A DNA stretch of 64,000 bases. Source: Burkholderiales bacterium. GTDB lineage: Bacteria; Pseudomonadota; Gammaproteobacteria; Burkholderiales; SG8-39. The notes under the pieces are model-generated. The model made no database searches, was not told the origin of the DNA, and saw nothing but the letters and a program-made list of their open reading frames with translations. The position numbers and the translations under genes are program-made. The stretch spans positions 4,963-68,962 of the forward strand of contig DATHHS010000216.1 of assembly GCA_035317085.1 (NCBI GenBank), read 5' to 3'. This document shows, in pieces, positions 14,195 through 17,779 of the stretch; within the stretch, counting starts at the first letter, position 1, and every line of letters begins with the position of its first letter.

Positions 14195-14431
14195 CGTCCT
14201 CGAGCGGTCACTTTCTCAGATAGCCTGGCCCGCGACACCTGAGTCCCAACGTCGTCGTTTACCGACCCGAGCGAGGAGGTGAAGCCCGCGTGCTCGGGTC
14301 CGGCGCGGCTTGTCGGGTCGCTGATTCTTCGATGACTTGGATACCGTTTTCCACACACCAGTCCCTCAGTGCGTTTTCGATTGACTCGGCCTCGTACTTG
14401 TACCACGGAGGCCGTCCGCTGGGACGAAGGA

Positions 14432-15031
14432 TTAGACGGCACTGGTGACACGAGTACGTTCGGCCTCGGTCAATACCTGCGGCTGCCTGATTGGGGTGCC
14501 TGAATCCGCGACGAAGAAGGGATTGCGTTTGTAGTTGCCGCTTATGCGCGCGGCGATCACGGACCTCATGATTTTCAGCAAGGCTACGAAATTGCTCATC
14601 GGTATGGAATTCACCTGACCTTTCGCAGACTTCGTTTGCAGCACCATCCGCACAGGGCCAAAAGAATCTTGCAGCGAGGGCGCACGCTTGGCCAGGCAGC
14701 TATGAATCAAGCCTACGTATGAAGTCTTGAAGTCCCGGGGAGTGTTTCCGATGGGTGTGTTGCAGCAACTGGTGTACCAACGCAGGAGCCCATGGTCAGA
14801 CAAGGACATGCAAACGAGCGCCTCCAGCCCCTGCGTAAAGTGCACGTGCTTGGGGAGCGTGGCAACAATTTCAGTTCCACCCAGTTCGTTCAGCACTGCA
14901 TCGCCCGGGCGTTCAAGAAAGTGGGCAAAAGCTTGGCAGTCCTTGCAGTAGCAAACGCCCCTATTCGCCATGTCAGGAGGACTAACGTAACCTTTTAGCG
15001 TGCCGCATTGGCACTGCAGCGGATGGTTCAT
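14432..15031 (-). CDS. Cys-rich GFA-like / DUF6151-like protein (putative integron cassette ORF)
   Basis: MNHPLQCQCGTLKGYV...RGVCYCKDCQAFAHFL...LLRWYTSCCNTPIGNT is the Zn-binding Cys pattern of the GFA/DUF6151 type. GC is visibly lower than in the flanks. GTTAGGC core site lies 35 nt upstream of the ATG. The longer 371-aa ORF runs antisense into the IS. Confidence 0.7.
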   Translation of the reverse strand: MNHPLQCQCGTLKGYVSPPDMANRGVCYCKDCQAFAHFLERPGDAVLNELGGTEIVATLPKHVHFTQGLEALVCMSLSDHGLLRWYTSCCNTPIGNTPRDFKTSYVGLIHSCLAKRAPSLQDSFGPVRMVLQTKSAKGQVNSIPMSNFVALLKIMRSVIAARISGNYKRNPFFVADSGTPIRQPQVLTEAERTRVTSAV

Positions 15032-15178
15032 TCGGCGTAGGCTACACTCACGTGGGGAGTTTGTGCCGCCTAACGAATGAAAGGGACTTCCCCTACTCGA
15101 AGCGGGTTGTGGCCCGCACGGCATCGAAGTGCCAAGATTGAGTTTGCGTTGTTCAATCTGATAACGAGAGGGGAAGTC

Positions 15179-16183
15179 ATGGAAAAGGTTACTACGTTGG
15201 GGATCGATCTGGCAAAGAGTGTGTTCTCGCTGCACGGGGTGGATGGTGCGGGTCGCGTGGTGCTCAGGCGCACGGTGCGCCGCGATCAGCTGCTTGGGGC
15301 GGTGGCGGCCTTGCCGCCGTGTCTGATCGGCATGGAGGCGTGTTCGGGGGCGCACGAGTGGGGCCGGCGGTTCCAGGAGTTGGGGCACACGGTGCGGCTG
15401 ATGGCGCCCAAGTTCGTGGCCCCGTACAGAAAGAGCGGCAAGAACGACGGCAACGACGCCGAGGCGATCTGCGAAGCAGTGACGCGGCCGAACATGCGTT
15501 TCGTGCCGGTGAAGTCCCTCGAGCAGCAGGCGCTGCTGGCAATGCACCGGGTCCGGCAGGGGTTTGTGGTGGAGAGGACCGCGATTATCAACCGGCTGCG
15601 GGGCTTGCTCTGTGAATTCGGCGTGGTGCTGCCGCTGCGCTCGGTGACCGTGCGCCGCCAGGCGGCTGCCGCGGCGGAGAACCTGCCCGAGCTCGCGCGT
15701 CGCGCAATCGGCGATCTGCTCGAGCAGCTGCGCTCACTCGATGAACGCATCGGTGGCTACGACCGGGAGATCGAAGCCCAGGCCAAACTGTGCGAGCCGG
15801 CGCAGCGTCTGATGAAGATCCGCGGCATCGGGCCCACCACGGCGCTGGCCATCGTGGCCACGGTGGGCAACGCGCGCGAGTTCAAGAACGGCCGGCAGTT
15901 CGCCGCCTGGATTGGCCTGACTCCGAGCCAGTACTCCACCGGCGGCAAGCCGCGCCTGGGGCACATCAGCAAGCGCGGGGACGCCTACCTTCGCAATCTG
16001 CTCGTGCAAGGCGCGCGTTCGGTTTTGAATAGCGCCGGCAGGCACCCGGACCGCATGTCGCGCTGGGTCCTCGATCTGCAGCCGCGCCGCGGCTACTATC
16101 GAACGCTGGTTGCGATTGCCAACAAGAACGCGCGCATCGCATGGGCGTTGCTCGCCAAGGGCGAATCCATGCGCTCGGCATGA
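15179..16183 (+). CDS. IS110 family transposase (DEDD recombinase)
   Basis: MEKVTTLGIDLAKSVFSLHGVD...CLIGMEACSGAHEW...GKNDGNDAEAICEA (N-terminal DEDD domain) and GIGPTTALAIVATVGNAREFKNGRQFAAWIGLTPSQYSTGGKPRLGHISKRGDAYLR (C-terminal Transposase_20-type domain). RBS GAGAGGGG. Confidence 0.9.
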   Translation: MEKVTTLGIDLAKSVFSLHGVDGAGRVVLRRTVRRDQLLGAVAALPPCLIGMEACSGAHEWGRRFQELGHTVRLMAPKFVAPYRKSGKNDGNDAEAICEAVTRPNMRFVPVKSLEQQALLAMHRVRQGFVVERTAIINRLRGLLCEFGVVLPLRSVTVRRQAAAAAENLPELARRAIGDLLEQLRSLDERIGGYDREIEAQAKLCEPAQRLMKIRGIGPTTALAIVATVGNAREFKNGRQFAAWIGLTPSQYSTGGKPRLGHISKRGDAYLRNLLVQGARSVLNSAGRHPDRMSRWVLDLQPRRGYYRTLVAIANKNARIAWALLAKGESMRSA

Positions 16184-16426
16184 ACGCACCCATCCGCTAA
16201 AGACTGCAATTGTCGATGACGAAACGGTCAAACCGGTGCCCGGAGAACCTGATCAAACACGACGGCAGCAACTCATGCCGACTAACGAGAGAGGTCCGGG
16301 CATGCGGCTTTCATCGGGGCCAGAGCATTCAATGCTCACAAACAGGCCGGTTATAGTGACGCAGTCCGTTCTTCCATCGGCACAAACGCTTCCGTTGCGG
16401 AAACGGGGAAGTCCTTATAGTCCCGG
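16184..16426 (+). ncRNA. Candidate bridge/seek RNA in the 3' non-coding arm of the IS (hypothesis)
   Basis: 243-nt non-coding arm downstream of the transposase. Several local hairpins: CGGCA/TGCCG at 16263-16280, a GAGCATT-C-AATGCTC palindrome, and CCGTT-gcgga-AACGG. An internal motif GCCGACTAACGAG (16277-16289) is nearly identical to the interrupted target GCCGCCTAACGCG. No covariance model was run. Confidence 0.35.
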
Positions 16427-16481
16427 CTAACGCGCCGCCCGCTTGCGGGCGGTCGCTGTTGAGCCGGCGGTTAGACGTGAC
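16427..16481 (-). other. attC-like recombination site of the brnTA cassette, interrupted at its R' core by the IS
   Basis: Minus strand reads GTCACGTCTAACCGCCGGCTCAACAGCGACCGCCCGCAAGCGGGCGGCGCGTTAG. Two RYYYAAC boxes (GTCTAAC, GCTCAAC). The near-perfect hairpin GCTCAACAGCGACCGCCCGC-AA-GCGGGCGGCGCGTTAG has two unpaired bases on the 5' arm. The core is completed by GTTAGGC across the IS at 15066-15072. Confidence 0.5.
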
Positions 16482-16759
16482 CCCTTCTCATGCAGGCGCC
16501 CTGAGACGTACTTGTGAAGTACGCTAGCAATTAGCGTTTGGTAAGGAACACCCTCTTCATACGCCCGGGCTTGAATATCCATGAGATCGGCGGCGGAAAG
16601 ACGAATGTTTACGCGCCTGTTCTTTACAAAAGTTACACGCGCAGATTCTCGAAACGCGACGAGTTGCGCCTTTGTAGGACGAACGGAGACCAATGCCCCT
16701 TTTTCGTACGCACCCAGCACTTCTCGTTCGTAACGGTCAAGATTTTTCATCTGGATCAT
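16427..16759 (-). CDS. brnA: BrnA-type (CopG/RHH-like) antitoxin
   Basis: LDRYEREVLGAYEKGALVSV...KNRRVNIRLSAADLMDIQARAYEEGVPYQTLIASVLHKYVSGRL matches the BrnA antitoxin pattern. It overlaps brnT by 23 nt. The last ~18 codons are encoded by the attC-like hairpin. Confidence 0.7.
   Translation of the reverse strand: MIQMKNLDRYEREVLGAYEKGALVSVRPTKAQLVAFRESARVTFVKNRRVNIRLSAADLMDIQARAYEEGVPYQTLIASVLHKYVSGRLHEKGSRLTAGSTATARKRAAR
16470..16481. repeat. Left copy of the 12-bp perfect inverted repeat GTTAGACGTGAC (partner at 17086-17097)
   Basis: Plus strand 16470-16481 is GTTAGACGTGAC. The reverse complement of 17086-17097 is identical. The motif contains GTTRRRY / RYYYAAC. Confidence 0.85.
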
Positions 16760-17030
16760 CCGTTTCTAAATAGTCGCGTGTTGCCTTCCGGCTCGGAATG
16801 ACAGTCTTCAAAAAGTAGTGTTCCTCTTCCTCGACCGACGGAACAAGGAAGATGTATCCCCGATAGGCCACGACTAGCACGACCTGGCCGGGATAACGCC
16901 TTTGATTGGGATGGACCAGGATGTCTTTGAGTCCACCTTCCTCTACCGCAAGAACGATCTCCTCAAAAGAGATGCCGCGCCCTACCTTCAAGCGCTCGTT
17001 CTTAACCGGATCCCACCGGAACGGCTTCAC
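16737..17030 (-). CDS. brnT: BrnT-type (DUF497) toxin
   Basis: (V)KPFRWDPVKNERLKVGRGISFEEIVLAVEEG...YFLKTVIPSRKATRDYL resembles the DUF497/BrnT ribonuclease toxin pattern (F-WD..K...N...G.SFEE...R.ISAR.AT). GTG start at 17030. Confidence 0.65.
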   Translation of the reverse strand: MKPFRWDPVKNERLKVGRGISFEEIVLAVEEGGLKDILVHPNQRRYPGQVVLVVAYRGYIFLVPSVEEEEHYFLKTVIPSRKATRDYLETDDPDEKS

Positions 17031-17085
17031 ACATGGAGTCTACCAAAGCGTGTGCCTTTTGTCATCAGGCATCCTATTGCGTCTC

Positions 17086-17097
17086 GTCACGTCTAAC
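17086..17097. repeat. Right copy of the 12-bp inverted repeat; cassette boundary core site (GTTAGAC on the minus strand)
   Basis: Plus strand GTCACGTCTAAC at 17086-17097. IntI homology begins at the next base, 17098. Confidence 0.85.
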
Positions 17098-17779
17098 TCA
17101 CGGCCGACGAGGTCCAGCGCATTCTTGCGACAATGCACGGCACTAAATGGCTGATGGCGAGTCTGCTCTACGGCGCGGGGCTTCGCTTGTGCGAGTGCCT
17201 GAAGCTGCGAATCAAGGACGTGGACTTCGGGTACGGGCAGATCATGGTTCGCGATGCCAAGGGCGGGAAGGACCGGATCACCCTGCTTCCGCAATCCGTT
17301 GTCGAGCCGCTGCGCGAGCATCTGGCTCGAGCCAGGAAATTGCATGAACGGGATGTCGCCGATGGATATGGCGATGTCGAGCTGCCCCATGCGCTCCGCG
17401 TCAAGTATCCGCGCGCGGCCTATGAATGGGGCTGGAAGTTCGTGTTTCCGTCGTACAAGCGATCGGTCGATCCGGAGACCGGCGTCATCCGTCGCCATCA
17501 TGTTTACGAAAATTATCTGATTCGCGGGGTCAAGCAGGCGGCACGCGATGCGGGCATCGTCAAGCACGTGAGCTGCCGCACCTTGCGCCATTCGTTTGCC
17601 ACCCATCTGCTGGAAACGGCTACGACATCCGCACGGTGCAGGAATTGCTCGGTCACGCTAGCGTCGAGACGACGATGATCTACACCCACGTGATGAACAA
17701 GGGCGGGCGCGGAGTCAAGAGCCCGCTCGATCGCCTCGAGCAGCGGCGCGCGGAGTACAGGGTTCAGGACGCGGCGTGA
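17098..17779 (+). pseudogene. intI: Integron integrase (IntI) remnant: about 100 N-terminal codons missing plus a 1-nt frameshift
   Basis: LTADEVQRILATMHGTKWLMASLLYGAGLRLCECLKLRIKDVDF...GGKDRITLLP...[25 protein letters not shown] (the IntI-specific insertion)...RRHH...[11 protein letters not shown], then a frame change in the A-run at 17614-17616 (GAAAC instead of GAAAAC) to [27 protein letters not shown] stop codon (TAA 17095-17097) lies immediately upstream in frame. Confidence 0.85.

Follow-up and report, generated by a model that had tools for sequence, protein, structure and literature searches.

The interval 14244-17779 of a 64,000-nucleotide stretch of Burkholderiales contig DATHHS010000216.1 (the whole stretch is hereafter called the window) is very probably a degenerate sedentary chromosomal integron, on a platform downstream of pilU in this betaproteobacterial lineage. 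A first-pass annotation, made from the sequence alone, had read the region between glnE and pilU as a decayed chromosomal integron, and this is borne out by the identity of its integrase remnant (intI), by matches to a covariance model of the integron recombination site attC, and by pilU-proximal arrays in relatives. The open reading frame (ORF) list and family scans give the gene order as glnE (plus strand), a DUF6151 gene (minus), an IS110-family transposase gene (plus), brnT-brnA (minus), the recombinase remnant (plus), and pilU and pilT (minus). Read from right to left on the minus strand, the array consists of the intI remnant, cassette 1 (brnTA), an attC site (attC1) split by an insertion sequence (IS), cassette 2 (DUF6151), a decayed attC2, a 53-nucleotide (nt) stump, a degenerate attC3, and 49 nt leading to the glnE stop codon. 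Both cassettes and all three attC sites are co-oriented on the 5' side of the plus-strand intI and diverge from it. Automatic gene calling had named the pieces 'Phage_integrase', 'hypothetical' and 'IS110 transposase', and missed the integron as a unit.

The integrase remnant is the following feature.

17097-17779, plus strand: intI pseudogene (TIGR02249, structure match, and alignment to the intact genes of related contigs L083, L084 and L085).

By its sequence, the remnant is a member of the IntI clade, not of XerC/D. The TIGR02249 'integron integrase' model matches it in two frames, at profile positions 115-276 (235 bits) and 275-315 (65 bits), which together exceed the 265-bit cut-off despite the absent N-terminus; models for XerC, XerD and XerA give 60-77 bits, and Pfam returns only its generic Phage_integrase family. 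The best solved-structure match is the Vibrio IntI4/VchIntIA protein (2a3v; 237 bits, E 1e-69), of which residues 106-320 align in a single 214-residue stretch that spans the IntI-specific insertion between patches II and III (...RRHH), whereas the XerC-like structure 4a8e aligns as two pieces that omit this insertion (query residues 78-141). Protein databases hold thousands of relatives, the best of them full-length (339-353 amino acids), 93% and 90% identical, and labelled integron integrase; among the matches listed, the best 120 homologues are of integron integrase type, with 74-93% identity to the remnant, and many are so named at source. The proposal of an IntI-type remnant on the plus strand therefore holds, through the TIGR02249 and 2a3v matches, and the suggested check on recombinase family places the protein with IntI, its specific insertion retained.

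We considered whether the remnant could instead be a XerC/D-type or phage integrase, the interval a decayed prophage or genomic island with a toxin-antitoxin pair, and the hairpins ordinary palindromes. The generic Pfam match, the weak Xer-model matches and a modest dip in G+C content (GC) would fit such an origin. Set against them are the TIGR02249 matches of 235 and 65 bits compared with 60-77 bits for Xer, the unbroken alignment to VchIntIA, the integron integrase-type homologues, attC-model matches specific to this spot, and a counterpart of attC1 in a true array (contig L141); the family scores, the structure alignment and the covariance-model matches refute this explanation, and we consider it extremely improbable.

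DNA alignment to intact relatives confirms that the integrase is both truncated and frameshifted, as had been claimed. Homology to the intact genes of L083 and L084 starts at window position 17097, at about codon 116 of a gene of ~340 codons, and ~115 N-terminal codons, the start codon and all upstream sequence are gone; the sequence across this point, ...CCCACGGTG|CTCACGGCCGACGAG in intact genes, has become ...GTCACGTCTAA|CTCACGGCCGACGAG in the window. After 17614 a single G is missing (CTGGA-AACGG compared with CTGGAGAACGG in intact genes), and the first His of the catalytic HxxR motif is changed to Arg (CGC, 17577-17579), such that the remnant offers no intact ORF with the catalytic R-K-H-R-H/W-Y residues. 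Codon alignment to the intact L085 gene gives 94.3% nucleotide identity, and inactivation looks recent because there are just nine lineage-specific substitutions in 669 nt. The integron attachment site attI is missing too, in agreement with the first-pass annotation: the attI repeats of relatives (TTAGTTGACA; L083, L084, L158 and L131) have no copy anywhere in the window, even at one mismatch, and the cassette adjoins intI codon 116 directly, with no attI between. Any cassette promoter within the deleted stretch is lost along with it. The lesions are not assembly errors, since the same locus is present in two other metagenome assemblies, of which the spanning one differs by a single base over 13974-18173; the second independent assembly (L082, Logan SRR7026262 contig) stops at window position 15096, 22 nt into the IS.

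In this clade intI is commonly inactivated, as a second case, P0071, shows. P0071 (L170-L173) is split by a frameshift into ORFs of 137 and 212 amino acids in several samples, and its neighbours are a DUF2283 gene pair and lexA-recA-recX. Inactivated intI with a fixed array is also the usual state among Xanthomonas chromosomal integrons (PMC12444791), and the idea that this stage of decay is rare does not stand.

The attC sites provide a second line of evidence. A paired-core scan upstream of 80 related intI genes, with their downstream regions as comparison, found 51 candidates in 160 kb upstream and 6 in 151 kb downstream. Our covariance model (R1) is a lineage model of our own, not that of IntegronFinder, built from 48 sites of relatives with the L141 twin of attC1 excluded, and it was run over the whole window, on both strands, with filters off. 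Only two matches have E<0.01 in the 64 kb, and both lie on the minus strand in the integron interval: attC1 at 16476-16415 (32.3 bits, E 7e-6), although the IS cuts the site, and attC3 at 14318-14244 (20.6 bits, E 0.006), the second-best in the window. As positive controls, intact attC sites in arrays of relatives score 37-73 bits, and the L141 twin 60.7 bits. The attC check proposed in the first-pass annotation thus returns matches exactly here. The sites and cassette boundaries are these.

17091-17097, minus strand: core site G|TTAGAC, the start of cassette 1, in inverted repeat I6; it abuts the first retained intI base.
16420-16476, minus strand: main part of attC1 (R'' GTCTAAC, L box, spacer ...GGGAC), from the covariance model and the twin at L141 579-642.
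15068-15074, minus strand: R' core GTTAGGC of attC1, which is the cassette 2 start G|TTAGGC, from the reconstruction and the boundary in L175.
14372-14437, minus strand: attC2, decayed, with R'' GTCTAAT (AAC to AAT) and an altered 3' arm, from homology to an attC of L175.
14244-14318, minus strand: attC3, degenerate and terminal, with R'' ACCCGAC and R' GTTGGGA, from the covariance model, 49 nt from the glnE stop.

Excising the IS (15075-16419) yields a 64-nt attC1, GTCTAAC-CG-CCGGCTCAACAGCGACCGCCCGCAAGCGGGCGGCGCGTTAGCCGG-GAC-GTTAGGC, that folds into an R box, unpaired 2- and 3-nt spacers and an L box (-23.6 kcal/mol), with three extrahelical bases (T, T, G) on the bottom-strand 3' arm, a polarity that agrees with minus-strand cassettes. 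An uninterrupted twin at L141 579-642 differs only by two spacer bases and by the R' bases that come from the next cassette, and it confirms both the IS boundaries and the attC identity of the site; the claim that the attC-like site of the brnTA cassette carries an IS is accordingly upheld. A cut of the IS after both CTAAC copies was rejected, as it gave a poor 52-nt hairpin; the correct 64-nt site came from the 7-nt/3-nt IS1111 end rule. The start of cassette 1 is tied to attC1 by complementarity: its core site together with 17086-17090 reads GTTAGACGTGAC, the exact complement of the extended R'' of attC1 (a 12-bp R box in the folded attC), and G|TTAGACGTGAC is exactly complementary to GTCACGTCTAAC, the onset of the hairpin downstream of brnA (inverted repeat I6), a pairing that the opening bases of a cassette should show with the R'' of its own attC.

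Core motifs had been claimed at each junction. Three on the minus strand fit the consensus (GTTAGAC 17097-17091, GTCTAAC 16476-16470 and GTTAGGC 15074-15068), and GTTGGGA at 14250-14244 is imperfect. By the strict R''/R' consensus (RYYYAAC, GTTRRRY), attC1 conforms and attC2 and attC3 fail; a strict RYYYAAC...GTTRRRY scan of the raw window finds no match, attC1 being split by the IS and the remaining sites being degenerate. In attC2 the last G is followed by CACTGA (14371-14366) in place of TTRRRY, and its L175 homologue is intact (GTCTAACCCTTCTTTCCCGCGGACCGCCTCCGGCGGCTGCTGAACTCAAACGTTAGGC, 35.9 bits). Between attC2 and attC3 lie 53 nt (14319-14371) that probably represent what is left of a third cassette. 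An Rfam scan of 13800-18200 gave nothing relevant; its sole match, ASpks (E 0.5), is a chance one. We also observed a GC-rich hairpin between the intI end and the pilU stop that is kept in three loci (window 17853-17888, minus strand; L087 5289-5328; L152 11012-11048), with weak partial attC-model matches at model positions 10-66 only; it is probably a pilU terminator rather than an attC.

The cassettes carry the following genes.

17037-17065, minus strand: sigma-70-like promoter match ATGACA-17-TAGACT, with TG before the second hexamer, upstream of brnT (consensus match only).
16737-17030, minus strand: BrnT (DUF497)-family toxin gene, 97 amino acids (weak Pfam match, named homologues).
16427-16759, minus strand: BrnA/CopG-like antitoxin gene, 110 amino acids (weak CopG_antitoxin and BrnA matches).
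14432-15037, minus strand: DUF6151 gene, 201 amino acids, the cargo of cassette 2 (PF19648, E 5e-25).

The opposite-strand toxin-antitoxin pair of the first-pass annotation is present at 16427-17030, toxin gene first, the two genes overlapping by 23 nt. Databases contain over 4000 relatives of the 97-amino-acid protein, equal to it in length, among them entries called BrnT family toxin or DUF497 and entries that carry PF04365; we accept the pair as BrnT/BrnA-like, with a predicted toxin-antitoxin function. The promoter-like match could be cassette 1's own promoter. The last ~16 codons of brnA are encoded by attC1, and toxin-antitoxin cassettes also occur in L141 and other arrays of this integron family. 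The same tail peptide, ...GSTATARKRAAR, ends two unrelated antitoxins, the BrnA-like protein of the window (16427-16476) and an HTH/XRE-type antitoxin of L141 (593-642) that belongs to a RelE/Gp49-like pair; both ORFs run through the same attC to a stop codon in its 3' arm.

A second small ORF had also been noted; it exists, and it is the 201-amino-acid DUF6151 gene, not a small one. Its homologues (85-91% identity) are located in cassette-like arrays, and cassette 2 starts at G|TTAGGCGGCACAAACT, the same boundary as that before the 91%-identical DUF6151 gene of L175, which has an intact attC after it. The L175 cassette (289-1422) lies beside a different IS110-family transposase gene (377 amino acids) on the opposite strand. 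In L174 (1-8475), DUF6151 is one of a long series of small genes (GFA, DUF1801, methyltransferase, ydhR and others) that all point the same way, with attC matches between them.

Several observations count against the integron account. The covariance model does not detect attC2 in the window; half-site hidden Markov models of the attC arms did not detect it either, being too short for power. The attC3 match is marginal at E 0.006, and the site coincides in part with a weak hairpin of terminator type on the glnE strand, possibly the glnE terminator; attC3 (20.6 bits) is nonetheless plausible because L174 has true attC sites, located at cassette boundaries, that have diverged and score 19-21 bits. 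The toxin-antitoxin family matches are all sub-threshold: Pfam BrnT_toxin gives E 1.3e-3 and 19.5 bits (cut-off 34.5), CopG_antitoxin E 8e-5 and 23.7 bits (cut-off 28), and NCBIfam BrnA E 5e-3 and 16.9 bits (cut-off 60), and a PDB sequence search with the BrnT and BrnA proteins found no match. Finally, we found no empty or intact glnE-pilU interval in a close relative, the closest GlnE relative being only 68% identical and too distant for the comparison.

The chromosomal position was assessed from both flanks.

11564-14194, plus strand: glnE (ORF list, family scans).
From 17930, minus strand: pilU (ORF list).
19120-20163, minus strand: pilT (ORF list).

To the right of the integron are the core genes pilU-pilT-yggS-proC, and intI lies beside pilU in at least four other contigs (L083, L087, L152 and L164). 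L083 has an intact intI (90% identity) followed by pilU-pilT-yggS-proC in the same order as in the window, and the contig stops just upstream of intI; L087, L152 and L164 have 3-8 attC matches upstream of intI, the L152 array spanning ~4 kb and ending at an rlmL-like gene, not glnE. Relatives therefore offer intact intI genes and attC arrays at the pilU-proximal position, and no conserved non-integron locus. A scan with the GlnE C-terminus covered relatives at 80 loci or genomes (≤68% identity) and found no pilU, pilT, intI or cassette gene within 10 kb. Since intI-pilU recurs and the GlnE relatives have neither gene nearby, the pilU side is the conserved anchor and the glnE side is not. The proposed pair of flanking core genes thus survives on its right-hand side alone, and the suggested comparison of glnE-pilU intervals produced its counterparts from the pilU side, with none among the GlnE relatives.

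The two chromosomal flanks also bear on whether this is a mobile integron, carried by a transposon or plasmid, and not a sedentary one. The closest intI genes occur in other contexts, with 97% protein identity in L085, between other flanks, and 93% in L084, beside pgsA-uvrC, and L164 combines a PilU 95% identical with an IntI 67% identical to those of the window; all of this would suit a mobile element. Apart from the IS, however, the locus has no transposition genes or inverted repeats, core genes flank it on both sides (glnE, and pilU-pilT-yggS-proC), four other contigs have the same intI-pilU junction, the attC sites vary little within the family, as in chromosomal arrays, and the cassettes carry a toxin-antitoxin pair and a gene without known function. 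We regard a mobile origin as very unlikely. The disagreement between PilU and IntI, seen in L164 (intI 1903-2568, pilU 2692-3333) and in L152 (PilU 81%, IntI 76% identical to those of the window), suggests that intI has been replaced or exchanged at one and the same pilU locus; intI replacement at ilvD has been reported for Xanthomonas arboricola.

Base composition had been part of the original case for a low-GC islet. The spot counts are confirmed (50.4% at 14.52-14.64 kb and 45.9% at 16.74-16.80 kb), and the islet is not: GC is 59.9% over the whole interval compared with 62.8% for the window, with 54-57% in the two cassettes and 64% in the IS, and other 60-nt blocks equally poor in GC occur elsewhere in the window. 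The region is not distinguishable by composition alone. The contrast with glnE had been overstated as well, its mean GC being 67.5%, not ~72%. The lowest-GC 60-nt blocks of the window (33-40%) are at 48181-48420, 42241-42300 and 37561-37620, all outside the integron.

The IS in attC1 is an intact element, placed exactly between the attC1 spacer and the GTTAGGC core.

15075-16419, plus strand: IS1111-type IS, 1345 bp (NF033542, Pfam, IS1111 end rules).
15179-16183, plus strand: IS transposase gene (tnp; NF033542, 365 bits, profile positions 2-342 of 343).
16277-16367, plus strand: candidate seekRNA (bridge RNA) block, ~90 nt, near-invariant in five elements.

IS1111 elements have subterminal inverted repeats of 11-13 bp, extensions of 7 nt on the left and 3 nt on the right, and a long non-coding region downstream of tnp (PMC11187229). 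The window element has the transposase domains PF01548 (DEDD_Tnp_IS110) and PF02371 (Transposase_20), a 7-nt left extension (GAATGAA) before the left subterminal repeat AGGGACTTCCCC (15082-15093), a right repeat GGGGAAGTCCTT (16405-16416) before a 3-nt right extension (ATA), and 236 nt of non-coding sequence downstream of tnp (16184-16404 before the right repeat); by both its domains and its end architecture it belongs to IS1111 within IS110. The circle junction predicted from its ends is ...GTCCTTATA-G-AATGAAAGG. The window holds one copy. The ending of the L082 contig 22 nt inside the IS suggests that the element is multi-copy in that community, and so probably active.

Transposases 66-76% identical to this one occur, with the same element ends, in the arrays of four other integrons of the family (L085, L091, L158 and L131). 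Wherever the left flank can be read, in four of the elements, the insertion point is YCTAAC|G; on the cassette strand this corresponds to ...AC|GTTAG, a single base away from where the integrase crosses over. In all five, tnp is on the intI strand, antisense to the cassettes. The elements of the window, L085 and L091 are inserted at ...AC|GTTAG of an attC. The L158 relative (~8262-9600) is at the equivalent attI point, beside TTAGTTGACA repeats and right before the GTTAGG of the first cassette junction; that of L131 (1 to ~560) also abuts attI and TTAGTTGACA repeats, its left flank lying outside the contig sequence. The IS lineage therefore targets the core sequence common to attC and attI rather than the structure of attC itself. 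Among annotated plasmid transposases, the nearest have 51-62% identity, and plasmid relatives did not place the IS among named elements: the three loci inspected (51-57%) adjoin a Tn3-family transposase gene, ccdAB and type III secretion genes, with no integron genes.

An IS1111-attC group, inserted antisense at one attC end, has been described (PMC3001079), and ISKpn4 and ISPst6 have been shown experimentally to be guided by a seekRNA from the 3' non-coding region (PMC11187229). In the window, two short motifs of the candidate block correspond to the junctions of the element: CUAACG (16282-16287) equals the left flank extended by one base into the IS, and UUAUAG equals the right end of the IS together with the G that comes next. 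By analogy, a seekRNA from the element's own 3' non-coding region may guide it to AC|GTTAG of attC and attI; a point against this is that no covariation among the five element sequences supports a fold of the candidate, and the guide role is for this reason argued from analogy.

The truncation of intI falls exactly on the G|TT crossover point of the cassette boundary, no base being added or lost. In every close relative, the internal intI partner has G|CAC on the cassette strand (segment CCCACGGTGCTCACGG; site 5'-CCGTGAG|CACCGT). The secondary-site consensus of class 1 integrons is G-(A/T)-T, and G|CAC falls outside it, which tells against an integrase-made junction. We nevertheless favor an integrase-catalysed event, because a random endpoint would, by our estimate, meet the cassette boundary about once per several hundred positions, and the base-exact junction suggests that the truncation was made by integrase chemistry itself. 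Two routes could lead there: an excision between the internal intI site and the attC preceding brnTA, which would have removed 5' intI, attI and the proximal cassettes, or an integration of a brnTA-DUF6151 circle into intI with a deletion afterwards. The combined proposal, that intI was destroyed by its own reaction (attC with G|CAC, by excision or integration) and that the IS1111 lineage homes by seekRNA to AC|GTTAG of attC and attI, is one that we hold tentatively, at somewhat under an even chance.

An ordinary deletion (by replication slippage, IS-mediated or illegitimate) could also have truncated intI in an integron that is otherwise real, with the match to the cassette boundary due to chance. 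The intI-side G|CAC, which is not the canonical G|TT or G|AT, the presence of an active IS family resident in these arrays, and the fact that no second gene was found truncated at this codon (P0071 carries a frameshift, and in L168 and L169 it is the contig that ends) are all compatible with such a deletion. It has more trouble with a G|TTAGAC crossover point at which no base is gained or lost, with the 12-nt complementarity to attC1 R'', which sets the boundary independently, with the estimated rarity of a random endpoint at that position, and with the lack of an IS end at the intI junction; we see it as a possible, if doubtful, explanation. A recurrent truncation hot spot was rejected, since P0074 and P0089 start at the same V-L-T codons but are contig ends. 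The two metagenome contigs L168 (base 1) and L169 (bases 1-9) end ≤8 nt from the intI truncation position of the window (V-L-T codons), which could be chance, or an assembly-graph branch from population variants broken there.

A specific form of the integration route has IntI placing a two-cassette circle (brnTA and DUF6151) into the intI G|CAC, with attI, the 5' half of intI and most of the former array, up to the last stump, lost in a later deletion. One such model would explain both abnormal junctions, and right after the terminal G of attC2 the window reads CACTGAGGG compared with CACCGTGGG at the expected position on the antisense strand of intact intI, a match of 7/9. When the missing 5' intI or attI was sought to the left of attC2, however, no similarity extended past those 9 nt and scores were within the shuffled range; the 7/9 match has an estimated chance probability of ~0.004-0.02 after post-hoc length choice, and a second deletion ending just 9-13 nt from the junction is needed. 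We consider this sequence of events unlikely.

Relatives suggest that the integron would originally have had a plus-strand intI transcribed away from attI, with attC-bounded cassettes on the minus strand. What remains are the brnTA and DUF6151 cassettes and the probable third-cassette stump, with intI dead, attI gone, attC1 split and the core triplets of attC2 and attC3 mutated. We infer that the array is frozen, because no integrase can be made, capture is precluded by the loss of attI, and the remaining sites are poor substrates for an integrase acting in trans. The toxin-antitoxin cassette would still act as an addiction module that stabilised the array, and brnTA probably continues in that role. 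Toxin-antitoxin cassettes are well known in sedentary chromosomal integrons such as the Vibrio superintegron; like those, the module here is a two-gene unit in one cassette with a promoter-like site, and it differs in its family, predicted to be BrnT/BrnA-like, and in an antitoxin ORF that reads through attC.

Relics of this type are already well known, and this one is new, in an uncultured betaproteobacterial lineage. As in Xanthomonas, where intI is located downstream of ilvD (Gillings et al. 2005, as cited in PMC12444791), the integron occupies a fixed site by a core gene, intI is intact in some relatives, and a short array is fixed; unlike in Xanthomonas, the host is an uncultured Burkholderiales/Casimicrobiaceae-like betaproteobacterium, the anchor is pilU, the truncation endpoint is at a cassette crossover point, and an IS lies in attC. 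Clusters of attC sites without an integrase form the IntegronFinder class CALIN (as used in PMC12444791), which the locus resembles in having attC-bounded cassettes without a working integrase or attI, and from which it differs in its recognisable attached intI pseudogene and its single good-quality attC; with the pseudogene still attached, it is intermediate between a complete integron and a CALIN. The IS resembles the IS1111-attC group (ISPa21, ISPst6, ISKpn4 and ISPa25; Tetu & Holmes 2008 and Post & Hall 2009, as cited in PMC11187229 and PMC3001079) in its IS1111 architecture and its insertion at one attC end antisense to the cassettes, a likeness of architecture and target site; its non-coding region has a short target match across the insertion point, as in the ISKpn4 and ISPst6 seekRNAs, and two of its relatives (L158 and L131) are at attI rather than attC.

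The locus leaves the current understanding of integrons unchanged. It puts on record a chromosomal integron family, anchored at pilU, of uncultured betaproteobacteria from soil and groundwater, and is a clean worked example, useful for annotation, of the stage that lies between a complete integron and a CALIN. The IS and its relatives, with four fully resolved insertions at one sequence and a fifth abutting attI, make up a target set for the reading of attC cores by IS1111 seekRNAs. The one feature worth pursuing is the base-exact truncation junction. IntI recombination at secondary sites has been reported in class 1 integrons (Francia 1993; Recchia 1994), and the junction is like those events in joining a cassette G|TT to sequence that is neither attI nor attC, and unlike them in that the partner lies inside the integrase gene itself and is a G|CAC. 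If intI was indeed lost in this way, integron death would be a by-product of integrase activity and not of random decay.

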